From contig JAHRHZ010000093.1 of NCBI GenBank assembly GCA_024137785.1, forward strand, positions 3,910,087 through 3,974,086: a stretch of 64,000 nt of DNA, written 5' to 3'. The first letter of the stretch is position 1. Each line of letters begins with the position of its first letter. Source of the stretch: Ginglymostoma cirratum. Lineage: Eukaryota. The position numbers were made by a program, and so were the translations under genes. This document shows positions 6,926 to 62,439 of this stretch, one piece after another. A model generated the notes under the pieces. It saw nothing but the letters and a program-made list of their open reading frames with translations, did not search any database and was not told where the DNA came from.

Positions 6926-7081
<156 letters not shown>

Positions 7082-9333: not shown

Positions 9334-9370
9334 ACCCCCCCCCCCACACACACACACACACACACACACC
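9334..9370. repeat. Poly-C plus (CA)n microsatellite
   Basis: Read directly; further (CA)n or (CT)n tracts at about 10167-10188, 13911-13956, 14247-14298 and 15809-15837. Confidence 0.95.
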
Positions 9371-11406: not shown

Positions 11407-11462
11407 CTGTTTTGTCATCGAGTCGATGAGGCGAACATACAAATCCTGCTCGGTCCTTATTC
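11407..11462 (-). CDS. EBF1: EBF1 coding exon 4 (56 nt)
   Basis: Reads (G)IRTEQDLYVRLIDSMTKQ; acceptor TAG at 11465-11463, donor GTAAGC at 11406-11401. Confidence 0.97.
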
Positions 11463-12151
11463 CTAAATATCAGAACATATTGCAGATTGTCAGTCTGAAG
11501 GCCTCACTTGGTAAATGTAATGTCTTTTAGCAATACTTTAATTGTGGGTTGTACCTCCGGATCCCTCATCAAATTCTTCCCATATTTAGGGGCGAACATT
11601 CCCCAGCCTTAAACAGAATACCCAGGAACAGAGCAGTAAATCCGGGTGGAAGTGTTGCTGCACATGGAAAAAGCGGCTGGTGGCGATTTTTCAGAAGGTT
11701 AGGGGGAAATTAAAGGCGGACGAAGGAGGGGAGTGCTGTTAACAAGGACAGTATAAAGACTTCACTGATTCAAAACTGGCTTTCTGGACCACTCTCCAAA
11801 ACTCCCTCGAACGCAAGGCGAATGATTAAAACTCAATTTTTAAAAAAAATTCTAAGCCTAGTCTAGAGACAGATATAAGGAACTTCGGTGAGATACATAA
11901 AGCCAACATTTTATAATGAAAAAGAGTGAATATGTATGACAGAGAGAGAGAGTGGGAAGGATAAAGAGTGAGTTTAAACTGCTTGAAGCTTCTAAGCGAT
12001 ATGAAATGCAAGTTCCAGCACAAGGGACAAGTAACAGAGAAGGGATGTGCAAGTTACGGTGAGACTGAATTTAAACTATGCCTACTCCCGTTCCCGAAGA
12101 GCTAGCTCCAAGTTAGCAGCGACTACCATATGGCGACAGAAAGCGACTTAC

Positions 12152-12215
12152 CATTGCTGTAGAGAAGCTGTAATCTGTAGTGAATCCCGTTATTGGTCTT
12201 TTCACCACCGATTTC
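12152..12215 (-). CDS. EBF1: EBF1 coding exon 3 (64 nt)
   Basis: Reads EIGGEKTNNGIHYRLQLLYSN(G); acceptor TTTCAG, donor GTAAGT. Confidence 0.97.
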
Positions 12216-12705
12216 CTGAAACATTATTTTTAAAGATGCCGGATTTTAGAGAAATTTGTGCTAAATAGAGTGAAATCTCAATTAAGATACCTTGCAAAGA
12301 AAAGTCGTCAGGGTTTAACCACGCGAGATTCTCACCGGGGCGCCCAGTCCCTCAATCAATCAGTCCTTAGTTGATTTTGTTATATTTAAATCTGAATGTT
12401 TTGGTAAAAAGATTATTTCCCCCCCCATTTGAATGTAAGAGACGGAGCAAAGTTAAGTTTCTCTAGGGTATGTGTTTATATCGAACTGTATATGTAAAGG
12501 GCTCTGTACATATGAATATACATCGCACTTGTAAAAATGTTTTCATTACAGAAACGATACCAAATACATTTCAAAGTCTCCGTTTTAGTATAAAGCAGAG
12601 AGTTAAGCCAATGTTGGAGACAATTTTTTAACGCGCTTTGGCTCAGGCAGCTTAGCAGTTCCACCCCCAGAAACTTGGCCCCCGGTCGTTTCCTACAAAC
12701 TTCTA

Positions 12706-13014
<309 letters not shown>

Positions 13015-13552
13015 CTAAAAATACAATCTGCATCCTTTTATTTTAAATACAAAAAAATTCTCAATAGCACTGGAGAAGTTGAAGGTCCCAACACTCTAAC
13101 ATGCCCTAATTGAGTTGTACCGTCGTGTCAACGGTGGTGAGATGTTTAACTAACTTTTGGGGTGTTAGAAGAAGGGTGATTTTATTTTATTTTTAAAAAA
13201 AATCTATACTTTTAAGTTGAACGGTTTAAAACAAAGTTAGCGTCTTGAACTGAACCAGTCAACATAACGGGGAAAAGGTAAATATGGACGGGGCGTTCAA
13301 TTGTAATCAATTCATCAAATAAAAAGATACTCCGACAGCCCAAAGGAAGAAAACAACAAAAAAAAACACACACAGTGGGACGGTAAATGATTGGGAATCA
13401 AACGTTGCTGAAAATATGTCAGAATTTGAAAAAAAATGTATGTGGCCTGTCTCTGACTTACAAAGAGCTTCGCCAGATCTACGGTCGGGTTGTAAATAGA
13501 TTTGCCACAAATACAGTGTGCGCTCAAAATTGAGAGAAATTGCATTGCCTAC

Positions 13553-13686
13553 CTCTGAGCGGCCGAAGTAGCATCCATGATGCCGGCTCCTTGCATCCAG
13601 GACCGGACAGCGTTGATCCCGCTTCCCAGAGGCTCTTCCTTCATGCTGCCTCCGCTTCGTTGGATGTTTTCCTGAATACCGAACAT
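13553..13686 (-). CDS. EBF1: EBF1 coding exon 1 (134 nt from ATG), early B-cell factor 1 / COE1
   Basis: Reads [44 protein letters not shown](S). IQRSG, NAVR and MQGAG fit EBF1 better than EBF3, and RNF145 is the known EBF1 neighbour. Donor GTAGGC at 13552. Confidence 0.95.
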
Positions 13687-14830
13687 GGAAACACGCTTTT
13701 CTGTTTGGATTTGGGATTTTCTTTTCCTTCGCTCTCCCGTCCCACCCACCCCACCCCCCCAACCCCCCAACTCTGTCTCTGCTCGCCGCCGCCGCCGCCA
13801 GAAAGCGGCTGAAGATGTTCCAAACGCACTCAAGTCTCCGCCAAGAGCGGTGCGTGAAAACACAGAGCAAAATTGCGGTGATGATATCGAACTGTGATGG
13901 GGTCCGCTTGTCTCTCTCTCTCTCACATACACACACACACACACAAACACACACACAGTTGTGGGAGGGGTAGGGAGGAGGGGGTGGGGGTGAGAGAGAG
14001 AAAGGAAGGGGAGACAGAGAGAGAGAGAGGGACGCACACACACTCACTCACTTACTACCGGTTGGTGATCCGCAGAAAGTAAAGTATTTCCTCAAACACC
14101 CCCTTCCCCCCCCCCCAAGAAGTGGGGGTCAGAAAGGGCTGGCGAGGAAGCGGTAGCAGGTGAGGTTTGACAACACAAAATTAAAACCGAGCTACCGGGC
14201 TTTGAAGCACCCAAGTGTCATCATCCAATTGGAACCACTAAGTTTATTCTCTCTCTCTCTCTCTCTCTGTGTAATATGTGTGTGTGTGTGTCTGTGTGCT
14301 AACAAACGTCGTGCCTGCCAGTCCCAGCGAATGAATGAGTAATGTTGCTCCGCCGAGTTCTTCCCTTGTGAATGATGCTGGGTTGTTTTTTTTTGGTAAG
14401 GGTTGGGGGGGGGGGGGGGGGGGGGGGTGGGGGTGGGAGGGATGCGTGTTCTCTGATCTCGGGCTGGGAAGACGGGGAGGAGGAGTGGACACAGAGGGGC
14501 TTGGTGGTGGTGGGGAGTCAGTAATGGGAGCCGATTGTCCCTGTTGGAATTCACATTTCAACAGCCCCAAAAACCGTCTCAGATACCCCACCAAATTCCT
14601 CTCTCTCCCCTAAGGCAACAAAATCTCGCCGCTTCCCCCCTCCCACACCCCCACCCGAAAGGGTCGGAGCTGCTGAGGGGGTGGGGGAAAGAGGATGGGC
14701 GATGACTACCAAATATGGCGTGGAAAGCCCCGCCCTCCCCCCTAAACCAATGGGTTGGTCTGTCTCTGTGTAATGGACAGAAGGAGCTGACAATAGGGTA
14801 AATCATGTTTTGTTCTTGTTTTCATATTTG
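13687..14830 (-). promoter_or_regulatory. EBF1 5'UTR and proximal promoter, GC/CpG-rich
   Basis: Directly upstream of the ATG; GCC repeats, GC boxes, CCAAT (~14747), CArG box CCAAATATGG (14709-14718), G/C tracts and CT/CA microsatellites. The TSS cannot be determined from sequence. Confidence 0.7.
14399..14441 (+). repeat. G23 run with flanking G-tracts (G-quadruplex-capable)
   Basis: ggg tt G23 t ggggg t ggg a ggg. Confidence 0.85.
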
Positions 14831-15397
14831 GTACAACGAAGCGGTAAAGGTACAAAGAATTTACTGTTTCAAAACGCGGACCTGTCCTGTTGGACTTTTC
14901 CTTTCCTTCTTCTGGGTTGGTCTAATGGAAAATTAAAAGGATGAAATGTTTAATGTCTTGTTGGTCTGAGCGACAGATTCTCAAACTGTCCTGGGCTTGG
15001 GCAATTTCTGAAACAAATCCCATGAGGTTGCCCGGGGTCCATTTGACTGAACTGATATCATAGAAAGCAAAAATGAAATCTATCCCCTTCCCCCCACCCC
15101 TCATAACAACTTCACATGGAGTTACAGCTCTCTGCGTAGGGACAGCTGTCAGGATACGCTGGAGCAACTTCATGGAATCTGTGCTACAGAGTTTGACAAA
15201 TGCAAAAATCGAGCTTAATGTACATATATTATACCATGCACATTGATGCTATAATATATCTATTTTGAAAACTTATTATAAAAATTAAGAAGTCCTTGGG
15301 GCAAATAATAATCAATATAATTATTTGTCATCAATGAGAGCGGTGTACAATGTAGCAGTAAGGGCTACCGTGTAGTAGATTCAGGGCCTCCAGCTAT

Positions 15398-15720
15398 TAC
15401 CACATAGCCTCCCATTACACACTACCTGTTATTGGTCACTAACAGTCCCCGTTAACAACTATTCACCCTCCCAGCCTTGATAACAAAGAGTTATCAACTC
15501 TTTGTCTGTCCAACTGTTCTTCTCTCTCTTTAGGCTCTATCCTATGGTTTACATCCTACCCCATCTCCCTCCCCTATTTTCTGCATATGAACCGACGTTT
15601 TCCCCGCCACCATCAGTTCTGAGGAAGGGTCGCCGGACCCGAAACGTTAACTCTTGTTTGTTTTTCCTTCACAGATGCTGCCAGACCTGCTGAGCTTTTC
15701 CAGCAACTTCTGTTTTTATT
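15398..15720 (+). mobile_element. Non-autonomous Penelope-like pLTR fragment (family A) with an exact 11-bp TSD
   Basis: Homologous to about 19220-19666, which follows a GIY-YIG C-terminus; flanked by cctccagctat at 15387-15397 and 15721-15731. Confidence 0.85.
15615..15652 (+). ncRNA. Minimal type I hammerhead ribozyme motif, intact core
   Basis: AGUU-CUGAGGA-A-GGGUC(GCCG)GACCC-GAAA-CGUU-AACU: stem I AGUU/AACU, perfect 5-bp stem II, palindromic ACGU stem III. Confidence 0.8.
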
Positions 15721-15803
15721 CCTCCAGCTATGAGGATGTGTCCCGGCTGGACCGGGTTGGGAGTAATGTTGAAGTGAATCCAGATAACGTATACACGCAG
15801 GTA

Positions 15804-15840
<37 letters not shown>

Positions 15841-18052
15841 GCGATTATAATGCAGAGTTTTGGTAACGATGCTGTTGCATTATGTAACTGGGTTTTTTTT
15901 TAACAAAAATTAATAGTATGTCACATCTGAATACAACCTTCGAAACACAGGACCTTATACCAAATTAGAGCACCCTACTCTGTCGGCTGATACAGGATTA
16001 ACTTGTAAAAACAATCATTTTGACACTGTTTCAGAATGCACGCATCTCTCCTTAATACAACAGGTAGCCATATGCGACGTTGTCCTGGGTTCGCCGTCTC
16101 TCCCAGTGGGTTGAGCTAAAGGCTGAAGAAGAACAGCTCTCCCCAGCTCTGGAAATGATGCCCCTTCTTCCCCCCAAACTCAACCTCTGAGGCCTCCACC
16201 CCCTCCCCACAGTGCTCAGACACTGAGATTTAGCATTTTTAAAACCCACTTTCTGCTGTTTGCAGCCTGCGGTTTAAAACCCAGTTCAAACACCTCCTCG
16301 TCAAATAAGCAACACATGCAGGAATGAAATCAGCTGTAGATACTGGTAGTTTGATCTGGTGCGTCTGTGGAAATCCTTTACAACCCTGATTTCAGGGGAA
16401 ATACTTGAACATTAACAATGGGCATGTCGCGGCGTGGGATACCTCAACCGGACTGAAAACCGGCTAAAACACGGAGTTCCAGTTGCCCCCAGCCCTGCTG
16501 TATCGAATTCGGACAGTTCTGTACTTTTGACTTGGAGGAGGAGGAGGTGGACCTGAAGGTCCAGCAAACGGATAGGGAATCGCCTTTGTGCAGATTCAGT
16601 TTTAATGTAACAGCTCCCTTTGAAACGCCAATGTGTGCAGGTAGAGGGGAAGGCGGGGGCAAAGGTTTTGAGCGGGGAGCTGGAAAGATGGCCCAGTACT
16701 AACACTTTAAACATCCAACTCCTGCTGAGGAGTAGCTTGTTGTAGACAGCGCTGGGGCTGATGTGGGTCCCATGTTGGCCACGGCTTTGTGGGTTTGAAT
16801 AGAGAGGAAGGCTGTTCGCCAGTGGGAGGGATATGAGGGTAGGGTGTGCTGTCTCGATGGAAAGCTTTTGTACAAAGGAAAACAACTACATTCCACTTTC
16901 AGGCAATATTTCCGCAGGGACCCTGAAAGGCCACATCAAATACAGGCGCAGAATCTTGTCAAATTAAATTAATCTAAATTCATTCGCAACTTGCATCATA
17001 TCTGGACAAGACTATTGTTAAACTCCCGTTAAAATCTCCAGGATCGATAACGGGAGACTGCTACTACGGCATTGTTACCCCGGGAATTTTTTTAAAAATG
17101 AATTTACTGCGAATATAGTTCTGGTTGCAACCGATTGGAAACAGAGCGGGTGTTAGCGCTTCCGCTTGTTACTGGAGCCGTTCTACACGAGAGCCACAGA
17201 GTTCCATTCTCTTTATCAAAGCTCCGGGCAGCTTTGAGAAACGATTGCGATATTTTAAATTATTTTTAAAAAAAACTTTCTTCTCTCTCGAGTTCGCACG
17301 TGAATGAAAGGTTAATATCGAATAGTTACTTTCTCTCTCTGCCCTCGAAAAGGCCACTTTATTTCAAACGTGTCAAATCTTTAAACGATAGTTACTGGTG
17401 AATAATATTGGAAATTAAGTAACTGCTTTTAGCCAATTTCAGATATCTAACCCTTCCAGAGAGGAAGGTAGAGGGTTGAATGAATTGTAACCCTGTCACT
17501 CTGTGTGCCTGCTTAGGGTGAAATAAACTTCCAAATCTCCCTCTTCAATCTGCATTGTAACTGAACAAAGTGGACATTCCCCGCGAATATTGAATTGTGT
17601 CAGGATCGTCTGACTTTTAAACATGCCAGTGGCCGATGCTCAAGGTTGTAATTTGCCCTGTGGCTGAGGGAAACGGTGCGATGGGATCTCTTCCTAAGCT
17701 AATACACCGTTTGCAGGCACCCCAAAAATCGAAGCGTTAGAAATCGCAGCGTCGTTTGGCCTTGTGTCAATTCTAAATGCCTGACTTGATTGGTTTTTGT
17801 TTGCTGCCCAGGTCGAGGTGACGGGAAGAAATTTCTGCTGGCGAAAACACAGCCCCAAATCACCCCGCGATCCGTCAGGGACCACTTTTTGTCAAGGCAG
17901 ACGGGCAAAATATCTCGCCCCGTTCGCGCAGAAAAATTGCGGGTCGCAGAAACCCAACGCAGCTCCCATATTCTCGAAACTGCTGCCGCCTTTCATTCTT
18001 CATTTGTTGTTCGTGCAGCTCTTGGTGTCTGCGGAACGGAACTCCTGTCAGC

Positions 18053-18339
18053 TCCTGGACAGTGTCCCAGCCCAGGGAGAGGGACTGGATGCTGGACAGT
18101 GTCCCAGCCCAGGGAGAGGGACTGGATCCTGCGCAATGACCCAGCCCAGGGAGAGGGACTGGATCCTGGACAGTGTCCCAGCCCAGGGAGAGGGACTGGA
18201 TCCTGCACAGTGACCCAGCCCAGGGAGAGGGACTGGATCCTGGACAGTGTCCCAGCCCAGGGAGAAGCACTGGATCCTGGACAATGATCCAGCCCAGGGA
18301 GAGGGACTGGATCCTGGACAGTGACCCAGCCCGGGGAGA
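18053..18339. repeat. Minisatellite, 37-bp unit x about 7.75
   Basis: Unit tcctggacagtg(t/a)cccagcccagggagagggactgga starts at 18053, 18090, 18127, 18164, 18201, 18238, 18275 and 18312 (partial). Confidence 0.97.
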
Positions 18340-18849
18340 CGCACTAGTCTCGACTATTTGCATTTCTTTTGATTACGTTCAAATTGAGTTGTCAAGCCGA
18401 GAGAATACAATTTTAAAAATAAAACAGCCGATCCTTTTGCGAACAAAATAGGGCAATGAGTAGAATCCTTGTTTTTAAAAAATCTTTTGGCAAACTGCAT
18501 TCACCTATCTCATCTTCAATCCGAAAGAGCCTCTCTTTAGCAAACTCAGTATCGTTTATCGAGTACCTGCTGTACCCCACAGCAGGTACAGAAAGTTCAT
18601 TTGCAATGAAAGCCCTAAGGTTCCATCAGAAAACACCTCGATATTTGAGTGAGGTTGGACAATCTGGAAAGGGGAGTGGGGTCATCTGGAAGAATAGGAG
18701 AAGGACAGCGACGGGGGGGGTGGGTGGTGGGCAATAGAGATGAAGGAACGGAACTACGGAGAGGAGGAGTGGAATGTACGCACCGGGAGAAGGGATGGGG
18801 AGCGGAGAGTTAGAGACAGTATCGGCGAGAGAGCATTCTGTGCGTAAGC

Positions 18850-18864
18850 GCGCCATCTAACGGC
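18850..18864 (-). promoter_or_regulatory. Candidate CTCF site
   Basis: Minus strand GCCGTTAGATGGCGC versus consensus CCAC(C/T)AG(A/G)(T/G)GGCGC, 2 mismatches. Confidence 0.45.
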
Positions 18865-19109
18865 TGGCTGCACCCAATACACTGCAAGAAAGTCATCCCA
18901 AAACTTGGAGCCATCCTGCCCACGCTGTCATTAGCAAGATACGATCAAATGAAAGTGTCTGAAGAAAGAGGAAATGTTTGATAAGAATCAAACGTACTGT
19001 GATTAGCGTCTCGTTGGCGATTCCCATACACGTTTTGTCAAGACTTCTTTTGAAGACATGTAACCAAGGCCACTAACGCCAACTACCGGGAATCCGATTC
19101 CGCAAAATC

Positions 19110-19666
19110 CTCATTTTCCGCTTGGGGACCCTGCTGCCCTGCGGACTCAATATCGAGTTCAATAATTTTAGGACCTAAGTTCTCCCATGTCCCACCCCCT
19201 ACCCCACACACCAGGCCTTGTTACCATATAGCATGCCATTACACACTACCTGTTATTAGACACTAACAGACCCCATTAACAAGTATTCACCCTCCCAGAG
19301 ATAGTAGGAACTGCCGATGCTGGAGAATCTGAGATTACAAGGTGTAGAGCTGGATGAACACAGCAGGCCAAGCAGCATCAGAGGAGTAGGAAAGCTAAAG
19401 TTTCGGGTCTGGACCCTTCTTCAGAAATTCACTATCCCAGCCTGATCGTTATCAACTCCTTTATCTATCCAACACTCTTTTCGGGCTCTATCCTGTCGTT
19501 TATTCCCTACCCCATCTCCCTCCCCTTTTCTTCTGCATATAAACTGACTTTTTCCCAGCTACCAAGAGTTAGGAGGAAGGGTCACCAGACCCGAAACGTT
19601 AACTCTTTTTTTTTCTTCACAGATGCAGCCAGACCTGCTGAGCTTTTCCAGCAACTTGTGTTTTTG
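19110..19666 (+). mobile_element. 5'-truncated Penelope-like element (family A): GIY-YIG C-terminal tail plus pLTR with a mutated hammerhead
   Basis: 19110-19178 encodes LIFRLGTLLPCGLNIEFNNFRT*, matching the PLE GIY-YIG terminal motif L.TL.P.GLN. The hammerhead at 19566-19605 has CUGA changed to AGGA. Confidence 0.85.
19299..19426 (-). mobile_element. Second short PLE-derived repeat (family B) nested in family A, with a degenerate hammerhead
   Basis: Absent from the homologous copy near 15461-15480; flanked by attcaccctcccag and attcactatcccag; minus strand reads CUGAAGA-A-GGGUC(CA)GACCC-GAAA-CUUU. Confidence 0.8.
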
Positions 19667-19799
19667 TTCCACAAACACCCAAACGCTTACAAAATTGAAT
19701 CAATTTCGAATGTATTGTTTCCTAAAAGAAGAGTTCAGGAATCAAACAGAAGCGAAGGAAAGCAGACAAGAGATTTACTGAGATAGAATAGCAAGATAG

Positions 19800-20930
19800 T
19801 TCAGAAACCAAAACAAATGAATAATCAGCAGGGATGTCAAAAGGGCAAGTCTTGCTTGGTCAACCTCATCCGATTTTCTTTGAAGAGGTAAGAAAGTAGA
19901 TGAAAGCAATACAGTAGATGTAACATATCCAGATTTCCTTTAATAAGTTACTACGTGGTAGACAAGTAAATGAAGTTGGGGAAGGTGGAGACAAAGCACA
20001 CATATCAGAATGGACGGTTAGCTGGATGAAGGATAAAAATCAGAGAGTAGGCGTCAAGTGTAGCCATTCATAGTAGCCAAGAGCAGGAAATGTGATTCCT
20101 CAAGGATCAATGCTGGGCTAATGTTATACGCAATTCGTAGCAATAATTTAGATTTTGAAATCAAACAAAATTGCATTTGACACTGAGGAAGCCTTTAACA
20201 AATTAGAAGACATGAATAAACTTTCAGAATTGATTTATAATTGGTAAATTAATTTCAACCAGGTGAGTGTAGGCTTTTACTTTCTCCTAAGAGAAATAAG
20301 GAGGGTAGTATTTAATTGAGCTGGAGAGGAGGACAGGGATCTAGAAGAGCTAACTTCCAAATTCCTGAACCTCTGATAAAGCTGAATAAAGCCTTAAATA
20401 AAAGAAAACAGCCCAAGTACTGCGTTGGGTTTACTGTGGTGGGATGTAATTGAAAAGCGGAGAAGTGACACTAAACTTATATAAAACCTCACATTTGGGG
20501 CAATGCGGGCAATTCTGATAGCCATATAATAAGCAGTACATAGAGGCACTGCAGAAGGTGTAAAAACAAATAAAAGGATGATATCAGAAATACAAGGTTA
20601 TACCTGTTAGGGAAGAATGATCAGGCTGTTTACCCTCGAATGAGAAAGCAAAGAGATGACCGATTGGAAGTCTTTAAAATTGGTAATGCTTTGCTCGATT
20701 AGATTTAGTGTGTTTCCACTCGTGAACGAGATCAAAACGAGATGTCATCAATATAAGATAGTCACCAAGAAATGAAATCGGCAATTCAGAAGAAGCTCCT
20801 TTATTCAGAAATGGAGAAAATGTGGAACTCATTCCCCCACAAGGAATAGCTAAGGTGAATGGTACAGATGTAAGTAAAGGCAATATAGTCAAGCCCATGA
20901 GATAAAAAGGAATAGAAGGAGTATATTACT
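19800..20930 (+). mobile_element. Decayed CR1-type LINE, RT region and 3' end
   Basis: gggcaagtcttgcttggtcaacctcat...gtagatgtaacatatccagatttc...gattcctcaaggatcaatgctggg, i.e. remnants of SCLTNL, VDV.Y.DF and VPQGS.LG. Confidence 0.8.
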
Positions 20931-21479
20931 GGCGTTCAACAAGGAACTTGTTGTAAGAGCTAACATTTAAATTTATAGAGATACAAATACACACTATTTT
21001 GTGAGATTACAAAAACAAGCACACATAGATATACATGTATGCTTTCTTATATATATATAGGACAGCCTATGCATTTATACTGTTACCTAAGTAAGAAACT
21101 GAAAGTATAGAACAAATACAGCAATAACTTCTAGGAAGAGAACAAATTAACAATTGAATGCGCATTTCTATCTATGACTGGTAAGGACTGTTGACAGACA
21201 AATGAACCACTTTTATAGGACTAACCAAAAAGGAATAGGGATCAGAATAAGAAAAAGCCAAGGAGCAAGTATTTGTTTTCTATCAAGAACATACTAATAA
21301 GAAACAAGAATAGGTTACTCGGCTATTCGAGCCCGCTCGGCTACTCAACAAGATCATGGTTTCAACCTCAACTCTACATTCCTGCATTTCCCCAATAATC
21401 TTTCATCCCGTTCGAAAATCGAGAATCTATCCAGTTCTGCTTCTAAAATATTTAGACATCACCTGGCGCAGTCAATAGA

Positions 21480-21900
21480 TTTTAATGATTGTAAAAAAAA
21501 ATGCAGTGAGAAGATTTAAAAGAGGTGGATGATGTAGCAGTGTGATCTCAAGTTAGAAAGTGAAACAGCATTAATAAGTTTAAAAATAAAAACAGCTCCA
21601 GAGACTGCTTTGGAAAATCAATGAGAGAAAAGGCCAAGAGAACAGGGAGACAGCTGAGGTCTGGAAGTTGCTGTGGTCAGTAGTAGCAACAGAGAGAAGG
21701 ACACAGCTCCTAAAGCTGGTGATGAATGTGTTTGAGGAGCTACAGAGGGCTAAAGGCTGGAAGGTTTGATGGGAACTGAGCCAAGTTATGTTGAGTGCTG
21801 AGGCATTTGGATGGAGTCGAGGGTAGAGATATCCAGTGTTGCGGTCAAACAAGCTGCCTTTGGTCTACGGCTGAAAGGAGACTGTAAGTGTTTACTTGAT
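21480..21900 (-). mobile_element. Decayed L2-like LINE fragment
   Basis: Purine-rich plus strand with L2-like wording; similar tracts near 28850-28990 and 50520-50830. Confidence 0.4.
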
Positions 21901-22946
21901 TCTGACGAATCAAATCTTCCGGCAGTCCAGATGTCTTTTTTTGTCTCTCCCCCAACACCCATGCACACACCCTTTTGCATTCCGATTTCCCGAGCACTAA
22001 TTTTCTCTCTCAATGCTTTGGGCTCAATAGATGGGATTAAGTTGCGCTTCATGAGTCTCCAAGTTTAGGACGAACACTTGGGAGAATAAAGCGCAGGATG
22101 GGGTAGTCCGATGGTATTTTGGCAAGGGGCTGAGGGCTAAGTGCTGAATGTTATCCTGGCCTTTCTCTCTGCAGCTCCATTTCCCAGCGGCTGTGCCGGG
22201 GTATGATCACCTCCTCATTCCCATATCAACACTGACCTCCAGCGGCTGAGCTTGGGTATGACAAAGAGGGGACTCAGAAGGAGAGCTGAGATTGACGAGG
22301 TGCTCAGAGTGCATTTTAACCTGTGCACCTGAATGAGCGTTTAACGAGCTGGGCTCCGGATCGATTGAAAACCACCACCATCCCCTCCCCTTCAAAACCT
22401 CCCCAGCTCTTCCCTCATCCAATTCCATATTTCAACCCTCAGCTTGAACACCTTTGTTATTAGACTCGAGAATTCAAGTATCTGGGGGGTGGGGAGACAC
22501 CAAGCTTTTATTGATTTTTTTTAGGAGGTCTTAAATTTCTCCTTACTTTAAAAGTAATACACAAGCCCCTGTTTCGTAAGGAGACACAGTTCTAATGTAC
22601 TATCCCTGTAATTTTACCAAGACAAGACGAAAATTCAGTCGAGCGCAAACTGCATGTACAGACTCTGTGAGTGAGATGGTTTGGAAATGGAAAGTAAGGA
22701 TGGTGTCAGGACTCGGTGTCGGTATCAAACGAAAGGAAGCATCAGGACCTCCCTGGTCTGCGTCCCACAGTGCGTCTAAACGCCATAGCCCTCACTGAAC
22801 CGCAATTAGCCTACACCAGCTATCCGCTCCCTTCAGAACGCCTCGTTCTGCTCAAAGGCTGATACATGTGTCTACAAATACTTTCATGAACGTGGGGGCT
22901 GTTTGGGAGAGTCACAAAGCTTTCAGAAATATAAAGTTCTCTTGGG

Positions 22947-23042
22947 ACAAAAACAGAAATCTCTGGCGAAGCTCAGCAGGTCCGGCAGTGGGAAATCAGC
23001 GGAGTTAACTTTTCCGAGTCCGGTGACCCGCCATCGGAATTT
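22947..23042 (-). mobile_element. Degenerate family A pLTR/hammerhead remnant
   Basis: acaaaaacagaaatctctggcgaagctcagcaggtccggcag...gagttaacttttccgagtccggtgacccgccatcggaa. Confidence 0.75.
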
Positions 23043-24934
23043 CTGTCCGCTTGAAACAGCCAGGCTAGTAGAGCCGAAAGCTGAGTTCTTTTTCCCGGGT
23101 CCGTCACTCTGTCTGGTCGCAAGGCTGCCCCGCTATCCCTCCCAATCCTAAATTATAACAAAATACACAAGGGAATTTGTGTGGGCAAACAGATAAATGG
23201 AGGAAGGGAAATCAAACACAGCTCTGGGATATTAGTTGCTCGCTGTAAATAGTCATCGTTTGCAAACACACACAACCCAGCGGCTAAATAGTGCACAGCC
23301 ATCTCCCGCAAACAACGACATAGAAGATTTGGGCGATGCTGGTTTGTAGGACACTAGTTCGAACTCGGGTGCAGCACTGTCCTTGCTCCTTCTTCCCCAG
23401 GGGTCTCCGATTTCCTGTAGAGACTGGTATTTTGTCCAGGCAACTCCCCGCAACCCCCTTCGCCGAGGGTAGAATTTGTCTAGCGCCTGTCAGCGACTTT
23501 AGCATTAACGACTAACTGCACTCACAGCTTTGATGTGGGGCGGGGGGAGGGGGGCGGTGTGGTTAGCCAGGTACAACAAACAAAACTAAGGCCAGGCGAG
23601 TTTAAAAAGAAGCTGCCCTGAAGAGCAATTTCCATCGGAAGATCTAATGTATTCCTCAACAAAACCTGTTGACAGCCAGGCTATGCAGCCCTAATGACTC
23701 TGTCCCAAACAGGGTGACGCCTGTCCGATTCCCTACCAACTGGTCACACGGTTCGAGGCCATATCTGCCTGGATTGGTTAGCTATATAAGCCTGAGCACG
23801 ATGGAGGGAAGTTAGAAAACTATTTAAATGCTGAGCAACTCATCGCAGAATACCATCATCCCTCGGAGAAATAACAGCGAGAGAAACCCAGCAAGCCTAG
23901 CAGCATCTGCAGGGAGAGGGAAATGATTAAAATTGCGGGTCATGAACATTTAGAGACACATTTGAAATTTTGCAAACGTGTCGAGCTCCCATTTGCGTTG
24001 TGCACTTAAACAACAATTCCATTTTGCTCAAAAAAGAAATATCCTTTACATGAGGACGGTGGAAAAGTGGTGTATTTTTGTTTTCTGACGATCAAAAAGC
24101 TTTAGCTAAAGTAAGACAATTGCCCCAGCCGTAATCCCAGGCCCCCTTCTGTACACTGTCTGTTGCACAGATCTGATGGAGCAAAAACAGAATGGCTCAT
24201 GTACACAAGTGCAAACTCAACGTTGATTTCGATGTCTCACTGCATTCATTCTGTCCACATCCCCATTATGTTTGGAACCATTTCTACGGAGACTGGGAGA
24301 CAAAGAGCTCAGACCTTCTGCCCTGTCACTGAATCCAAAGAAATGACTATTAGAGATGCCCGGAAGTCACTGCTGAGGAATATAGACCCAAGGTCTCGAG
24401 GATTCCCCTTTATTTTACTACAGCCTCTGATTTCTTCAGTGCCCCGGTGACAACAGGAAGCAATCTGGGTGAAGTGTAGGTTCTGTAATATAGCATTCTG
24501 GTATGAATGGGTCCTGGCGTTAATGCAGCAAAGACACACAATTTAGGTGACCCTCGTTAAACCCGTGCCCCAGAAGGAAGGCAGATCGATTTTTTATTCT
24601 GTTCAGTACCCACCCCCACCGCATCACATCTTCACTTTGAATCTTTCAGCTGAGAAGCTTGTTAAATTCAACCACTGTGCGGTAAGGTGAAAGTAAATAT
24701 CGAAATTACTCCCCAGACAGGAGCCTGTGCACAGTTGTCAGAAAGAGTTTGAAACGCTGGTTTCTTAAAAAGAGGCATCACAGATCCGAAGCCATTCACC
24801 AGAGGACCCGGGTTCACCCCAATATTAACAGCCCAGTGGCGCCGCCTTTCGATCGAACCCAGCATCACATCCATGACAGCACCACAAGAACTTCCCTCCC
24901 CCACGCACCCCCAATTCCGCTAATTTTGTCCTCG

Positions 24935-25143
24935 ATAAAAACCGAAAGAACTGCAGCTTCTGTAAATCAGGAACAAAAACGGAAGTTACTGGAAAAGCTC
25001 AGCAGGTCTGGCAACATCTGTGAAAAGAAATCAGAGTTAACGTTTCAGATCCAGTGACCCTACAGTTCTGAGGAATCAGTTCTGGTTTTTCTTCACAGAT
25101 ACTGCCAGACCTGTTCGGCTTTTCCAGCAACTTCTGGTTTTGT
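24935..25143. mobile_element. Head-to-head fold-back of two family A pLTR ends
   Basis: Left arm ggaagttactggaaaagctcagcaggtctggcaacatctgtgaaaagaaatcaga is the reverse complement of right arm tctggtttttcttcacagatactgccagacctgttcggcttttccagcaacttc. Confidence 0.85.
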
Positions 25144-26197
25144 GCCTCAGTGCTCAATTCCCCGTACAGTGTCCAGCATGCCGGATTCCTGAACTGGTTA
25201 CATTTGCGTGTTCTTCTAGCATTAGCCCTCACGCTGACCAGTTCTTCATTAGCGGCTGACAGGGAGGCTAACACCTCACAAGCCACCGATTTTCCACCCA
25301 GCCAACTTTCAGTAGTCTGATGAACCCGTTAGTCTCGCGCAGCTGGATCACTGCTCATTCAACCGCCCCTAAGTTGTATAGTGTCACATGTGGGTTTATG
25401 ATATTAGAAGGATTTCAGGGCATGCAGAATGTGGCATTTCTAACAATGGCTCTTCCGCCCTAATGGATGGCCAGGCTTTCTAAAAGTAACTGTATCTGAA
25501 AGCCATCAGATTTCACTTGGTCTCATTAACCGCTGGAGTTTCCTGATCTTTACTTCAATTCAAGGCCAACCTAGTTTGTGAAGGGTTTAATTTCACCTTT
25601 TGCGTTACCCTCCCCGTTTGCAATTTCATAATCAGTTTGCAACAGTTTTTAAAAGTATATTAAAAATCAGGCAAGTCATTTCTCACTTTTCAAACACACG
25701 TACAGACAAAACAAAAGCTCTTTGGCTGCAAATAATGAACTCAGGGGTAAATCAGCGATATCTAGATATTTAGGAATCGGCTAACACTCTCCCCAGCCCC
25801 ACTTTCCCCTGGCAGTGCGTGAAGTCACACACCAGATTGCAATCCATTTCTCCTCACTCCCAGAGTGGATAATGCATACCAAATGTTTCCTTTCCGCCGC
25901 CACCAGTCGATTTCTGGATAAACTCCTCAAATGAAACCCAAATTAACCCCGCATTCCCAAATAATCTCATTGGATAAGCAAACTAAATCAAATTGATAGA
26001 TTGCTATGTATTTCTGCGTAGTTCCCACTTCTTATCAGCCACCACCCCACCCTCTGAACCTGTAGCCTCTGTTAAATGTTAAGGTAGAAGGGTAGGGCAT
26101 ACTCCCGTCCAGGTTGAACTCTCCCGTGACACGGGCCCTCGCACAAACTGGCTACAAGCGCGTTGTGAATGAGCAAAGAAAAAGGTTCATTTTGAAC

Positions 26198-26345
26198 ATA
26201 AAAACAAACCGAAAGAACCGCGGATGCTGGAAGACAGAAACAAAAACAGAAATTGCTGACAAAAATGCTCAGCAGGTCTGGCAGCATCTGTGGAGAGAAA
26301 TCAGAATTAACGTTTCAGGCCCAGTGACCCTTCCTCAGAACTGAC
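26198..26345 (-). mobile_element. Family A pLTR end with a probable 10-bp TSD
   Basis: Flanks are cattttgaac (26188-26197) and cattctgaac (26346-26355). Confidence 0.8.
26305..26342 (-). ncRNA. Minimal type I hammerhead motif, intact core
   Basis: Minus strand: AGUU-CUGAGGA-A-GGGUC(ACUG)GGCCU-GAAA-CGUU-AAUU. The stem substitutions are G-U compatible. Confidence 0.7.
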
Positions 26346-26387
26346 CATTCTGAACTCAGCATTATTTGCAAAGTCACTCAGAGTTGT

Positions 26388-26582
26388 GATGCGGAGGTGC
26401 CGGCGTTGGACTGGGGTGAACAAAGTCATAAGTCACACGACACCAGGTTGTAGTCCAACAGGTTTATTTGAAATCACACGCTTTCGGGGGACTGCTTCTT
26501 CATCAGGTGACGAAATAGCAGCGCTGCGCAAGCTTGTGATTTCAAATAAACCTGTTGGACTACAAGCCGGCGTCGTGTGACT
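26388..26582. mobile_element. Third PLE-derived family (C): fold-back with two degenerate hammerheads at its centre
   Basis: About 47-bp inverted arms agtcacacgacaccaggttgtagtccaacaggtttatttgaaatcaca / tgtgatttcaaataaacctgttggactacaagccggcgtcgtgtgact; minus-strand CUGAUGA-A...GAAAGC core. Confidence 0.8.
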
Positions 26583-28555
26583 CCGGCATGGAGGCAGGTG
26601 AAATGAGCGAACAAGGCAACGTTTCACAGGCTGGTGCTGTCGCTTTCTCTCTCCAGTTGCTGTAAGATATTCACTTCTTCAGTCCCAGCAGCGGGTTGCA
26701 GGCACGATGGGGCGATTGGCCTCCTACTACACCCAAACAAGTCTGCGATTTGAGGAAAACAACATTGACAGATTCTCTCCAAGCTTGCATCAAAAGAATG
26801 AAGACGGGCCTGTTGATTTCATAACAGGCAGGACGGGTTTCGTTCCGAGTCAGGTTAAGGGTTAATCATTGAGGGGAGAGTGGTGTAAATGCGCCTGTAT
26901 TCTGTGTTTTGATTAAACTCAGTTTACTAGCGTGCATCGGTCAGGGCGATCCTGTCACCGTTAACCACCAGGACACTGAACTTTACAGCAATTCGTCCAC
27001 TACCTCCTCCTGCGCGCTCGTTCACCGCCACTGCTATAGGGTTCTCTTGCTTAAGCAGTTTGCATTCAAGTCTGGAACTAATACAGGAAATTCAAGGTTT
27101 TAAATGCCCTTTCAGTCATAAACCAAACTGTCAAGAAACCATGTGCGCTCCCGAGTTTCCTGCAGGTCATACTACAGGCTAAACAACATGAAGGAGAGCC
27201 ATCGGAAGTCCGGGAGCAAACACACGAGCCATTAGCAGAGATTAAACAGGCTGTAGTACAAAGCGAGATGGCCCCGATTTCTTCAAGACCATTACCGCGA
27301 GAAATAACCCGGAGATGCGGTTGCCTACAGCACGAAGCGAGCGACAGTAACGGGACACTGGGATGTTGGATGTAAATTTGAAGCTGAGCCAGGCTCCCAG
27401 GGTAAATATTTGGAACTGTCGGTACATTGAGGCGAAAAAGAGCAGAGCTCAACATTCGTTCTTCTGGATTGCGGGCTACAAGTTTTGATTTTACTCAAGT
27501 TCGGACTTCCATGTTGCTCTATGCGCAGCACCAACAGCAAGCCACCAGTTCCATTATAAATAATTTTAACATATCTAAAATGATCCATTCATTCCAATAA
27601 CATTTCCAAATATCCCCAACCAGCTAGCATTCTCTCCCGTTGCTGATGAAGACAGAGCACTGCGCTGCAACAATTTAAGTGCACATGGACGGCCACTGCC
27701 GTCCAATTGCAGAACACATTAAATATTCCCCATTCAGAGCACTATGTGCGAGCAAATCATTATTTGCAAGCCCATTTTGCTAAAACTAATACTATCTAAA
27801 GACGATACCAGCACTCGGCAAAACCAGTCACCTGCGTCACTCATAATCTATGATCACTCTCTCGGATGTACATCAACAGTAAATGTTGGATTACTGCCTG
27901 CTTTCGGGACAGCAACTTTTGTCGCAGTTTGTAAGCTTTTGTTTTGCCTTTCCTCTTCAAAGTGAACTAGGTCTCCTTTTCAAAGTTAATACTGAATATG
28001 TATGCCGTGGATTTCTCTTCCACTCCCACCTTAAAGACAACTAACTAATTTTCCAATTTAAACATTCCCAGCACGCCGAAAATTCAGCTGTCCAGTCAAT
28101 TTTAGTTAAAATTCTTCAATTTTTTCGATGTGGCCATCATCACAACGAATGGGAAAACATACCGCTAAGTGTCTTTTAACCCGAAACAATGCCTTGCTGA
28201 TGTTAAAAAACCTGCGTGGCATTCCAATGTCTCTTTCATGTTTTATCTTAAACTGGTTGCTGTTGGCTGGCTGCCTGCTCTCGAGTTTAAAACACACACC
28301 ATTTACTCCTTTGCTTAAGAGAGATACAATTAACGTTTACTTGCTGCTCCCATAACAATAAGGAAGCCGAAAAACAGCAATTCCTATTAGATTCTTCCCA
28401 GCTACTGGGCACCGGGACATGGTACAGTCACGAGTCACGGTGACAGCATAAGGCTCAATGTGAAGAAAATGAGGAGCAAAATATCACAGAACATGCAAAT
28501 CTCCAATCACTCATCGATGTTTTTAAAGAAAATGTTCCTTTTCATCCGCAATTAT

Positions 28556-28775
28556 GGGGCGGCGTGGGCCTAGTGATTTTATCGCTAGACTATTAATTCA
28601 GAAAGCCAATAAATGTCGTCGGGACCCGGGTACAAATCACAAAAGGTAGCGAAGTTTTAACTCAATAAAAAAATCTGGAATAACCGACAGCAATGTGGTT
28701 TACTTTTAACAGTCCCCTGGGCAATTAAGGATGGGATTGTTGTATAGCCAGCGATTCCCACATCTTGTCAATGTT
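28556..28775 (+). mobile_element. tRNA-derived SINE, same family as 63412-63762, internally deleted
   Basis: ggggcggcgtgggcctagtgat (A-box-like)...gggacccgggtacaaatc (B-box-like)...ctgggcaattaaggatggg...ccagcgattcccacatc. Confidence 0.7.
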
Positions 28776-29159
28776 ATTTTTGAATTTTTTTTAAAATCAC
28801 CTAGAAAAAGAGGAAAAGGTCTAAGCTTTATATGCGTATTAACAGTTGAAGACGCAGGTTTTAAGACAGGTTCAGAGAGATAGTACTGAAGAAGTTCTGA
28901 CGGGTTTGTAGGGAAGGGGAGGTTGGAGATCGAGGACTGAATGCTACGATAGTGTAGCAGAGACGAAATTAACCAAGCTGTATGTCATACTCCATCGAGG
29001 TTTCAATAAAGAGGGAAACCCCGAGACTCGCAAAAATAACCAACAACTGCTGTTGGCTATGGAGAGGTGTGGATTGGGTCGTAACGTTCTTTCCAGGACA
29101 TTCAGTGTCGATTTGCACACCAGAAACGACTGCTTGGCAAGGTAGCAGAGATCAGTTGG

Positions 29160-29392
29160 AAAAGCTCAGCGGGTCTGGTAGCATCTGTGAAGAAAAGTCA
29201 GTTAACGTTTCGGAATGTGGTGACCCTTCCTTAGAAGGGAGGATGGGTAACCAGTTCTGAGGACGGGTCACCGCATTCCGAAACGTTAACTCTGACTTTT
29301 CTTCACAGATGCTGCCAGACCTGCCAAGCTTTTCCAGCAGCTTCTGTTTTTGTTCCTGATTTACAGCATACGCAGTTCCTTCGGTTTTTATT
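29160..29392. mobile_element. Head-to-head fold-back of family A pLTR ends with a probable 17-bp TSD
   Basis: About 75-bp inverted arms around a ~18-nt spacer; flanks tagcagagatcagttgg (29143-29159) and tagcagaaatcggttag (29393-29409). Confidence 0.87.
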
Positions 29393-30571
29393 TAGCAGAA
29401 ATCGGTTAGTAGTTACCCATCTTTATGAGTTATGATGATGTGTTCACCACACTGTCAGGGAGGAAATTCACATGGGAACAGCAACAAGTGTGAAACCCCA
29501 ATGGCAAAATTTTCCCAAATACAGGCGGACTGAAAACTGAAACGTACCTCCTTTAAGGAAAATTACTGACACAAATCTGTGTTTTAGAAGTATTGTCAAA
29601 TTAGATGGAAAAAAAACTAGAAAACAGCTTTTCTCTGCCAATAAAGCTAGAACTTAATTTCTTTTATTAAGTTAAAGATACCAGAGAAATGTAAGTCACT
29701 GTTAACCGTCCGTAGTTTTGTGCACACATTTCCTTTCCTTTCTTTTCTTACTAACCTATCTGGGAAATGATTGGCGCAGCATAACGTATATTTTTTCGAA
29801 AGCAAATCTGGAGAATGATTAATAATGGTAGCCTCCACATTGAAGCGGCAACAGAAGTGGTCCGGGGGAATTGCAGTGTTCACTAAATCAAACATTCGCA
29901 AATGGCTGCTCTAGGCTTAACATCAGCTAAGCCTAGCTGAGGCAATACGATGTCATTCTAATTAAACCAGCATTCCCCCCTTTATTAGAGTGGAGGAGAA
30001 TCCCAGAATTCCCACCCTGGATCATTTCTCCAAAATGATTGCTGGAAACCGTTGTGTGGACCCTGCTTAAAGCCATCAGCTGCGAAGCGTTTCACCTTCA
30101 ACAGGGTCTCAGCGAGCTCGGTTCACACACCAAGAGCAGTCAATTAGACTAGTCAACAGGAGATACGTGCGAAGGTACACAAAGGTAAGGCTTCACCAAA
30201 AGGGAAGGGAAACCTGAAAGGACAAACGATGGGAAAACGATTGGACACGAGATACAGCATGCAGATAGTTGACGTGGGGGCTGATACATGAGAATGACCT
30301 CAGAGCTCCAACAATGTCTTAAAATGTGACTGCAATCGCAAAGAGGTTTATAGTAGCATTTACACACACTAGATTGCAACTCATCTAACAGCGCCTTATC
30401 TATAATTTAGACTATGGCTTTAGTCTGTTCTTTTCTCGGACACTTATTTTGCTGTTACCATCGTAGAATCCATTCTCAATCCGCTTCACTTATTTTAGAG
30501 GTGATGATACCTGCAGTAGATTGATAGCAAGTGCAAAAGTAGACTACCATTTAGTGATTAGCAACTCACTC

Positions 30572-38492: not shown

Positions 38493-38629
38493 CTAAAGGA
38501 AAAAAAAAGCAATTTGGTAAGCAACATATTAAAATGTGTAATTCTGCAAGCCCAAATTATGGCTGACAATTTAAAGTATCCTGGGCAGCAAAGGATTTAA
38601 GGATATGTGTTTGCTCCACAGATGCCACA

Positions 38630-39890: not shown

Positions 39891-42037
39891 TCTGCCCAGC
39901 AGATCTGCTAAGTTTCTCGAGCAATTGGTTTTTGTTTCAGATTTCCAGAATCTATAGTTCTTTGTTTTATTTCACTCAATTAAACAGTTCTGATGTAAAA
40001 TCGAGTAAAGTACAAACTATTAGGATTGAAAGAGACTCAAATTACACCTTAAACTCATGCATACGATTCTTTGTACAGTCTTATGAACTTTAAAAGTACA
40101 ATTTTCCTGTTTTCATTTAATATAACAAGGAAATAGAAATTTAGCAGATTTACCTGTGACAATATATTGTTAGCAATGCACCACAATTTTAGTGGCAATT
40201 TGCTCAGAAATGTATCAATTAAATTAGTTTTCATTAGTCAACACGAAATATTAAATTTAAAAAATTAGGTGACAACTATATCTGTTAAAATGGAATTGAA
40301 ACAGTTTTTATTCAAAAAATAACTGAAATGTGGTTCCTAGAATTAAGAGTGATGCCAATGTCATTATATGAGGAAATGAAACATTAGTACAGATGACCAA
40401 AAAAGTAAACTTTTTGTCAATCACCCACTTTAAAGTATACTGCATTAACACCAAGATTGCAAAACTGGTCTCCTAGATTGACAGGGCAAATACACAGATC
40501 CACAATATCCTATGTAATAAGCAAAAACAAGATTCATTGCTCAAACTCTGAAGGGAGGGAAAGGTCAGATAAAGTCACCCTGACAGCTTGAGAATCACCT
40601 GGAATGTAGATATAAGTATTAAAATAGACAGATGCTTACAAAGGCTGAGCCAAAAAGAAACGCATAATATACTGACGACAACATGGATCCTATCCTCACT
40701 GTAATTTGTACAGCCAAAAAGGTCTTGGGTTAAAATCTATTGCAGCCCACTGAGTAACCCAAACTAGAATCAGGGAAGAATAGAAATCTAAAGGTCAGGT
40801 TTTGTCTCTAACCAGTAACTCCATGTACATTAGCACATTGAAGTGAAAGGAAAATAAACAGAGACAACACACATGAAAGAGGAGAACAGAATGCTCTGCC
40901 CTTCTTAGTTGGACAGACTGCCAACTGTCCATATTCACACATGAAAACTAGTAGTTAAGTTTGGTAGTGGAGCATTGCCAGTACCAGTGGAATGGCAATT
41001 TGGACTAATCCAGATAAAAGAGCAGAATGAATTGTGGTGGGAATTACAATATTATGAAGAAACTGATGATCCAGCACTGTCCTGAATAAACCTCAAAGTA
41101 CCAAACTTCAGGCAATACTTTTAGAAACTGTAAAACCTGTCCTTCAGGTCACCTTCAATAAACAGCCACCTGTGCAATAAAGCCAGCGATTCTCAAAACC
41201 AATAGGTTTCTAATTTACATGTAATTCAATAGAACCTGCAATTCAATTAAGCAGCCATCTGCTAACCTGGAAACAGACGCTAGTTTTGAAACAAACTGTT
41301 GAGAGGAGAAATGCGAATGGAACCTACACCTGGATTAAGAACTCCTCTCAAACATACTTCTAATCACTGTTTAAAAATGTTTTGTTATGATTACCCTTTC
41401 AAAACTCAAAGACAACAGCTTGATACAATTCATAGGCTGGTTATAATTACACAACCAAGGAAGGAATTTTTTTTGCTCAAAATGTTGATCGCAGTATATC
41501 TGTGAGCTAACTATTAAATCTCCTTTTTGTTGGAAATTCTTTTAAATTAAAGAATGTACATTTTCTACCCACAATGGGTAGAAGACCAAACTTTTTCTGA
41601 TTATTAGTAACAGATTTGCCTAACTATTTCTCTTCCATTACAGTGGTTACCTCTATATTTTACTGCTTATACCAAAACGGTAATTACCAGCACACTGTCC
41701 CAGTATTTATGCTTGTCCCTGAAATCCAACAATGATACTCATCTACTTTGAACTCTACTGGAGGCCTATATTATATAAACAAATGATTCAAGTCACTCAA
41801 ACACTGTTTGTAAAACAAATTACTTGGAATAAGTTTTGTTTGCATTTAAACCATTTTCATGACATAAGTGTCACTAGAAGGTGATGGAAAGAATTTTATA
41901 TCAGTTAGGAATTAGCAGAAGCAATACACATACAGAACGTGAACTGAACATAAGGACAGCCAACTGTGATCTTCCTGAATGAGTGTTTAGGTACTAAAGC
42001 CAGGGTTTAAGTGTTGCACTGGTGCCATGCTACATAC

Positions 42038-61670: not shown

Positions 61671-61706
61671 CTGTAATAAACACAAAAGAGAATCAATATA
61701 ATTGGA

Positions 61707-61800
61707 TACAAAAACAGATGTCACATTGGAAAGCTCAACAGGTCTGGCAGCATCTGTGAAGAGAAATCAGAGTTGACTTTTCGAGTCTGGTCATCCTTCC
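61707..61800 (-). mobile_element. Family A pLTR remnant with a degenerate hammerhead, next to an RNF145 splice acceptor
   Basis: aagctcaacaggtctggcagcatctgtgaagagaaatcagagttgacttttcgagtctggtcatccttcc; flanks tcaatataattgga and tcaatataactgca. Confidence 0.8.
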
Positions 61801-62439
61801 TCAATATAACTGCAACAGATTCACTCAAAACAAGGTTACACAACAGTATGTTGCCTCCTCTCCAGAAGGCCACATCTTACTCACGGGAGCTCTCCATTCC
61901 CTTGACCCATTGGGTCATTCTCCACGAAACTGCTTAGTGCATGTGGGCAAGCTGTCTTGGCCCTGCCTATTACATACAGTTTCCAGTATGAGTAACTGCA
62001 AATTTAGCACCATGAGAACTTATCTTCTCATTACCGGACCAGAAACAGAATCTAATTGTTGTATCCCCATTTAGAACAAGATACACCTCAAGACCATGGT
62101 TCCAACTCGTGGCCTTCAGTTTAATCATAATACTTCTGAACATGGCAAGTTTTCCCACTATGTGACTAAATATTTTGAAATGTTGTTACTGCACATTTCT
62201 GAAGGCACTTAAATGCAGATCCAAAAAACTGACATCATATTGAAAAAGGTTCTCAATAAACTTTAATTAGCGCAACCATATTCTGGATAAAAGCATAAGT
62301 TACAACTAGAATGGAGATTCTGGTTTATACATACATTAATACATCAAAATCTCTGTCATTTAAATAATCCAACTCCAAAAAACTCATTATATCAAATGCA
62401 CTGTATACCTTGAAGATTTTTCACGTTATTATAGTCCTT

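Follow-up and report, generated by a model that had tools for sequence, protein, structure and literature searches.

Short hammerhead-bearing inserts upstream of EBF1 in Ginglymostoma cirratum as end-pieces of Penelope-like elements

Inserts and hammerhead motifs in the interval upstream of EBF1

A 64,000-nt stretch of the Ginglymostoma cirratum genome (contig JAHRHZ010000093.1; G000:C93:3910087-3974086; assembly size 4.36 Gb), hereafter called the window, was analysed for short inserts with hammerhead ribozyme motifs, which belong to three families (A, B and C) of Penelope-like elements (PLEs). Self-comparison and a panel of natural copies yielded 11 family segments in the interval 15387-29409 (8 A, 1 B and 2 C), none in 1-15386 and two in 29410-64000. 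The 11 interval segments represent eight insertion events; three of them are head-to-head pairs, and one, a B copy, sits within an A copy. This intergenic interval lies 1.7-15.7 kb upstream of exon 1 of EBF1/COE, before a TRC8_N/RING gene. The features are given below, with "leader" for the predicted first part of the element's transcript and "tail" for an optional 3' extension; signed positions in the text take C3 of the hammerhead core as reference.

13552..13698, minus strand: first coding exon of EBF1/COE (match to COE1 in the PDB, E 1.8e-13), context only
15397..15720, plus strand: 3' end of a family A PLE without tail, with 3' untranslated region (UTR) and an intact minimal hammerhead (C3 = 15619)
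19108..19668, plus strand: 5'-truncated family A copy, about 560 bp plus the nested B copy
19299..19428, minus strand: leader-only family B copy that begins 4 nt ahead of C3 (19424) and extends as far as the end of the tail
22944..23040, minus strand: decayed leader-only family A copy, about 71% identity, core broken
24935..25147, both strands: head-to-head family A pair, neither core complete
26198..26345, minus strand: leader-only family A copy with tail, beginning 6-7 nt before C3 (26338)
26387..26582, both strands: head-to-head pair of family C (the AGCU-type family), cores or stems broken in both arms
29157..29392, both strands: head-to-head family A pair with a 15-bp target-site duplication (TSD) with two mismatches (29143, 29393)
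38055-42394: TRC8_N/RING gene on the far flank of the interval, presumably RNF145
39900..39963, plus strand: family A fragment from downstream of the hammerhead, without core, absent from the preliminary description of this DNA
61703..61803, minus strand: leader-only family A copy beyond the interval, with a broken core and two mismatches in a 14-bp TSD

The copy at 15397..15720 has a variant TATA-like box near 15586, an initiator-like CA at 15614-15615 and a perfect 10-bp TSD (15387-15396 and 15721-15730). The copy at 19108..19668 holds the last codons of a PLE open reading frame (ORF; LIFRLGTL...LNIEFNNFRT-stop, ending at 19180), followed by a 3' UTR with a TATA box; its core is broken (C3 and U4 changed) and its TSD is not above chance. 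The B copy nested in it has an intact core, a stem III that reads ACUU and has lost the palindrome, a stem I of 2 bp and a 14-bp TSD with two mismatches (19285, 19427). In the pair at 24935..25147 the minus arm is tailed (24935-25061) and the plus arm is untailed and internally deleted (25066-25147); the family C pair likewise has a tailed minus and an untailed plus arm. The copy at 26198..26345 carries a near-intact hammerhead with a G-U at the base of stem II and a 10-bp TSD with one mismatch. The minus arm of the pair at 29157..29392 is short and has G5 changed to A (29234-), and the tailed plus arm has an intact core (C3 = 29257) and a 3-bp stem II. When compared with a null of 300 random pairs, the TSDs of four of the eight interval insertions (15387, 19285, 26188 and 29143) and that at 61693 were above chance, and the other four interval insertions scored like chance. 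The preliminary description had put most inserts at 100-330 bp with TSDs of 10-17 bp; many are indeed short and TSD-flanked, but half of the TSDs in the interval do not exceed the null and the copy at 19108-19668 reaches about 560 bp. Its additional core at about 61760 lies in the family A copy at 61703-61803, but that core is broken. A GC-rich tandem repeat of about 39 bp in roughly seven copies (18053-18340) lies between the first two PLE insertions.

The majority sequences of the three families contain CUGANGA and GAAA, a single additional nucleotide behind A9, a stem II of 5 bp and a stem III that is palindromic (ACGU or AGCU), in agreement with the motif described earlier; the palindrome had been taken as common to all cores, but the core at 19424- reads ACUU. 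A loose hammerhead descriptor matched four interval sites, compared with a mean of 0.115 (maximum 1) in 200 dinucleotide shuffles, and a strict descriptor matched three (15619+, 26338- and 29257+), compared with none in 200 shuffles. Only these three sites keep core, palindrome and stem I together, and in 7 of the 11 segments the core is broken or missing. The claimed eleven or so cores of three families in 14 kb are therefore present as segments, but few are present as hammerheads. Stems I, II and III differ in sequence between the families yet still pair in A and C, so that the covariation predicted for the stems is seen there, but stem I of family B is weak. Families A and C have a U at position 17. 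An Rfam search of the window with E up to 10 matched no hammerhead family; such models miss minimal motifs. Cofolding of two copies predicted stem I and II pairing between them, which is no proof of cleavage as a dimer.

Background density was estimated from 30 readable random tiles (294,382 bases), an estimate that may be biased, since 34 of 64 tiles were unreadable and dropped. These tiles held 51 insertion events, equal to 2.43 per 14 kb or about one per 6 kb, and extrapolate to approximately 0.75 million insertions genome-wide. Candidate relatives of the copy at 15397..15720 run into thousands, the best being 87-89% identical. Ten neighbouring tiles (99 kb) held 17 events (2.40 per 14 kb), and the whole window, with 10 events, is at genome-average density. 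The eight events of the interval, compared with 2.43 expected, give P 0.0036 if the interval is regarded as fixed and a borderline P 0.056 if corrected for scanning (best 14 kb of the 64-kb window). The proposed cluster thus stands as regards its position upstream of EBF1 and the fixed interval, but not clearly after the scan correction. The spread within the window is uneven, with 8 of 10 events inside 14 kb (P 0.004 given 10 events), likely due to depletion of inserts over the two flanking genes, and passive insertion with a modest local excess probably accounts for the group upstream of EBF1.

An alternative is that copies near EBF1 have been kept or enriched for regulation of EBF1 or for cutting of local transcripts. 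The uneven spread would fit this, as would the three intact or nearly intact cores and the TATA-like box kept in 15397-15720. However, the excess is borderline after scan correction, the window and its neighbours have genome-average density, and the intact share of 3/11 is close to the 33-39% found elsewhere (35/107 A, 41/109 B and 15/38 C). Furthermore, two intact cores on the same strand are 13.6 kb apart and lie outside the gene. We consider such a function highly improbable, and the location near EBF1 looks incidental. The earlier suggestion that self-cleaving sites had been seeded into a regulatory domain found no support in the sequence: the interval lies upstream of the gene, most of its cores are broken and the density is close to the genome-wide average.

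Continuity of the inserts with protein-coding Penelope-like elements

The 29 best genomic relatives of the copy at 15397..15720 had common 3' ends, and their 5' ends formed a staircase from 8 to 1,299 bases upstream, reaching into an ORF. Walking upstream led to full-length family A elements of about 3.3 kb, two with direct repeats (L062, L063) and one with inverted repeats (L064). Pfam analysis of family A identified a GIY-YIG domain (23.2 bits, cut-off 22.6) and a weak match to RVT_1 (E 0.02). A CX2-5CXXC linker between the reverse transcriptase (RT) and the endonuclease (EN) was present in the family A frame, with similar cysteines in the B and C translations. Long copies of families B and C, read by translation, run into the same endonuclease region, and at seven loci the subfamily of the window's short A copies joins this region through the repeat. 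The PLE features observed comprise an ORF with RT and C-terminal GIY-YIG joined to the repeat, pseudo-long terminal repeats (pLTRs) in direct or inverted arrangement, and an optional tail; TSDs of 8-16 bp flanked 27 of 67 short non-inverted copies. All three families are the ends of autonomous, protein-coding PLEs. This agrees with the earlier assignment of the hammerheads to the minimal type I of PLEs, and the proposed link to full-length PLEs with RT and GIY-YIG was found at L062, L063 and L064.

By the criterion of PMC8557442, the linker motif points to a clade of Neptune type. With EN-containing PLEs of this type the shark elements have in common the RT followed by a C-terminal GIY-YIG, the CX2-5CXXC linker (family A), pLTRs, inverted 5' repeats and variable TSDs, the assignment here being made by the linker motif. 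No full-length stop-free frame was found in the best 104 of 116,588 candidates (RT matches, family A only), and family A therefore looks decayed. Four short broken frames of the locus L002 had no match in Pfam, and a PDB sequence search with the RT frame also gave none.

Three further observations concern the elements themselves. The first ATG of family A lies 52 nt after C3 (+52; L319-L348, L062:4720-4812) and begins a frame of 30 codons. In 11 of 13 translated copies this frame is closed by a stop, nine codons short of the long ORF's in-frame Met. The frame includes both tail ends and has the appearance of an upstream ORF that is conserved, or of a read-through stop. In family A the leader ATG comes immediately after a branch-point-like motif, a pyrimidine tract and an AG (for example at 29288-29309 of the window), and, judging from this motif, sense-strand intronic copies could be spliced into host mRNAs through the leader. 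PLE copies were repeatedly located inside the 3' UTR of other family A copies (window 19285-19440; L083, L107, L212), which suggests targeting of the elements' own repeats. Additionally, telomere-like TAACCC repeats adjoin two PLE copy ends (L126:1300-1450; L142 near 9500).

Ends of the copies and the putative RNA start

The 3' ends of the copies were located at two sites, which lie near +95 to +100 and +128 to +135 in families A and B; the corresponding sites of family C are near +82 and +121. Among copies found with leader-only queries, 81 of 114 had their 5' end at -9..+2 (41/57 A, 17/28 B and 23/29 C), and of those remaining 4/16, 2/11 and 1/6, respectively, had it in the next 24 nt. In random and neighbouring tiles, the proportions at -12..+2 were 14/24 A, 8/36 B and 3/7 C. 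When all copies not chosen by a query were combined, a start at -12..+2 was seen in 89 of 231, and one no more than 5 nt from the predicted cleavage site in 14 of 231 (5/92 A, 9/117 B and 0/22 C); the expectation that insertion ends would follow that site was thus not borne out. Among 30 A copies that hold the ORF start, seven begin at -5..-2, 11 reach 24 to 439 nt further upstream and 12 begin inside the leader, one of these at +28.

We think it likely that the inserts are end-pieces of three autonomous hammerhead PLE families and that the short ones derive from internal priming on the uncleaved transcript. The transcript would start just before the ribozyme core and stay uncleaved. The element's own RT would prime within the transcript, at tail sites some 100 or 130-140 nt from its start, an assumption made by analogy with an anole element in vitro, and would copy back to the predicted start, giving a leader-only insert of the first 100-140 bases. 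Longer copies would arise in the usual way, from read-through RNA primed at its 3' repeat, and be truncated at the 5' end. The TATA box is missing from short copies, which are thus likely dead on arrival.

Close pairs were mostly head-to-head inversions rather than head-to-tail. We collected 66 pairs, 38 of them not chosen by a query, and in 26 of the latter both arms ended at a defined site. Among these 26, tail and no tail were combined in 23 pairs, two tails in two and no tails in one (50% expected from single copies, P 4e-5). The trend was the same among all 66, with 46, three and one pairs, respectively, and 16 with a shorter arm. We infer that a pair consists of two cDNAs that were joined at their ends, each nicked strand having primed one of the arms and the two priming sites being different.

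An optional pLTR tail of 30-40 bp was described by Arkhipova et al. 2013 (PMC3846280). In the Anolis PAc element of the Poseidon type (Frangieh et al. 2024, PMC11167929), the tail is the stretch between two internal RT start sites, both strands are extended and RNA that has not been processed is the main substrate. The shark copies are similar in having two 3' ends 30-40 nt apart, a tail that is optional on one inverted repeat, and insertion without need for ribozyme cleavage; TATA and initiator also occur in a rotifer pLTR. They differ in that 5' ends fixed before the core and a one-tail-per-pair rule (23/26) were counted here, and in that the first ATG of family A lies 52 nt after C3 and not at stem II.

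The preliminary description had proposed that non-autonomous, retrozyme-like short RNAs, cut by dimeric hammerheads and possibly circular, are mobilised in trans by PLE proteins. In favour of this, the inserts occur in very large numbers and are short and flanked by TSDs, non-LTR retrozymes derived from PLEs have been reported in one chondrichthyan (bioRxiv 10.64898/2026.07.22.740005), and a few copies start no more than 2 nt from the cleavage site (3/92 A and 4/117 B). However, a unit running from cut to cut would be permuted or have its start behind the core, whereas the inserts start before the core, keep it whole and end 70-105 nt past the cut site. Among 401 segments in the sampled loci there were no head-to-tail arrays and only few two-copy neighbours. 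Subfamily alleles are common to short copies and to long ones, no diagnostic base is fixed in the short class that would mark a short-only lineage, and a family B subfamily without the palindrome still spread. A nearest-neighbour distance test (about 90 columns) spoke against a separate short lineage in family A, and the biased B set leaned towards one. Such a trans-mobilised system therefore appears very unlikely. Circles may be the source of some long copies. According to PMC7229834, published in 2020, non-LTR retrozymes consist of tandem units that each hold a ribozyme, are expressed as circular RNA and have canonical helices; the preprint (bioRxiv 10.64898/2026.07.22.740005) traces their origin to PLE repeats. 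They resemble the shark inserts in type I hammerheads, a length of a few hundred bases and PLE ancestry, but the latter are single or head-to-head, have minimal motifs and are continuous with coding elements.

Whether the 5' pile-up marks the RNA start was judged from the surrounding sequence. In long copies a TATA-like hexamer is located at -33 in family A, -35 in B and -37 in C; in A and B no other occurs within 150 nt. The hexamer lies 29-31 nt before a CA in pyrimidine context at -4, -4 and -7, respectively, which is the canonical spacing between a TATA box and a start site. In family A, stem I begins exactly at the A of this initiator-like CA. In family B, at least four Ts precede C3 in 15 of 40 short but 1 of 46 long copies (P 3e-5; six haplotypes), an A followed by exactly four Ts occurs in 9 of 40 short but none of 46 long copies, and a control T run varied in 0/56 copies. 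Some of the extra Ts may come from target DNA. Extra letters at homopolymers of at least three beside the start are known for bacterial RNA polymerase (PMC8812562), and might likewise arise with RNA polymerase II or with RT at a template end. Taken together, the ends, the TATA box with initiator and the extra Ts indicate that the pile-up is likely the RNA start.

RNA data were available as a polyA run (X24; same or close species, 12.9 million reads) from a library that looks unstranded. In total, 22,763 reads matched family A at a minimum of 85%, nearly all in the leader (L062:4646-4809), and depth per direction was 2,000-6,400 over the leader but 14-33 across most of the ORF start. Unrelated sequence preceded -3 in 1,263 reads. 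Both are due to short copies that sit in host transcripts, in which family A stubs are common. Given its unstranded look and the dominance of such copies, the run neither supports nor refutes the predicted start. A cap-derived G was also considered for junctions of family C and was rejected: three of six cases were in inverted pairs, and one G came from the TSD.

The same PLE families could have given rise to these copies with the pile-up as a truncation hot spot instead of the RNA start. In one form, RT primed at the 3' repeat would stall after the hammerhead or at a protein-bound pyrimidine tract; in the other, for family A, the RNA would be spliced at the AG before the core. A pyrimidine-rich tract lies just upstream in all three families, family A has a good acceptor motif and a modal RNA boundary at -3, consistent with exons whose last base is G, microhomology joins 10 of 16 resolved junctions, and an intron of D. 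virilis ends at helix I (PMC4209133). In contrast, an AG is absent from the 20 nt upstream in families B and C, TSDs in many cases directly adjoin the start and leave no space for an upstream exon, the TATA spacing is canonical in all three families, and short B copies have extra Ts at the boundary. No splice joint into the start site was found among the joints listed, beyond which there were 151 weaker ones. We regard a hot spot as rather unlikely, though a more serious candidate than the retrozyme or the EBF1 function.

Several results weigh against copying of an uncleaved leader from its start. In family B, short copies had long nearest neighbours in 36% of cases compared with 54% expected, in a set enriched for near-identical query matches. 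The one-tail-per-pair rule is not explained by PMC11167929, in which both strands are extended but start sites showed no strand difference in vitro. Run X24 gave no listed pile of molecule starts, ends or cleavage, and an untemplated cap-derived G was not apparent, a G being present at 2 of 16 TSD-resolved junctions. The branch-point-like motif, pyrimidine tract and AG just before the family A core could set the same boundary as a splice acceptor. The geometry is different in D. virilis, where transcription begins 46 nt upstream of an intron of 75 nt (PMC2377424), and this intron runs up to helix I (PMC4209133). Furthermore, 25 of 117 B copies start at +3..+17, and a near-full-length A copy (L061:4733 = L342) starts at +28, at most 2 nt from the predicted cleavage site, possibly as one copy of cleaved RNA.

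The hammerhead and the meaning of leader-only copies

The families are further minimal hammerheads in PLE repeats, a class already described by Cervera and De la Pena 2014 (PMC4209133). Features in common with these motifs are the type I fold, the extra nucleotide between 9 and 10.1, the G10.1-C11.1 pair, the palindromic 15.2-16.2, a short helix I, and thousands of scattered single motifs as well as pairs on opposite strands. They differ in the U at position 17 of families A and C; the analysis here adds a map of insertion ends and places the motif at the predicted RNA start. A search of two supplements of PMC4209133 showed no shark or ray name. Neither these families nor the start-site model was found in the literature searched, with Repbase, subscription papers and preprint supplements outside reach. 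The addition made here is the end map, together with the reading, held with fair confidence, of short copies as start-to-tail by-products of an uncleaved mRNA leader.

Most family B copies have a stem I of only 2 bp. In one B subfamily ACUU replaces the ACGU palindrome (17/109 copies, five of them long), and both short and long copies belong to it (e.g. window 19299-19428, L084, L099, L103, L106). Apparently the ribozyme of family B is decaying in a lineage that still spread, and since the palindrome-less copies spread in both lengths, spread seems possible without cleavage of a dimer through stem III. A dimer result of Lunse et al. 2017 is cited in a review (PMC6765202).

The role of the PLE hammerheads was stated as unclear (PMC8557442), and release or circularisation of unit RNAs has been the leading idea for a class known since 2014. 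Tentatively, the hammerhead might instead be the first structure of a capped mRNA, with stem I at +1, 30 nt past a TATA box, leader-only copying might be routine, and the ribozyme might act as a concentration-dependent brake on the element's own mRNA. If so, the ribozyme, which needs a second copy, would strip the cap and the first 34-36 nt off this mRNA and would have no unit-releasing role. Most of the approximately 0.75 million insertions would be by-products without a promoter in which the RNA start and the two priming sites are preserved. On the likely reading given further above, hundreds of thousands of natural insertions indicate that the RNA copied was mostly uncleaved and most likely began 4-7 nt before the core. 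This gives genomic support to the internal priming observed in vitro, and it explains how solo minimal hammerheads can swamp some genomes without a non-autonomous master.

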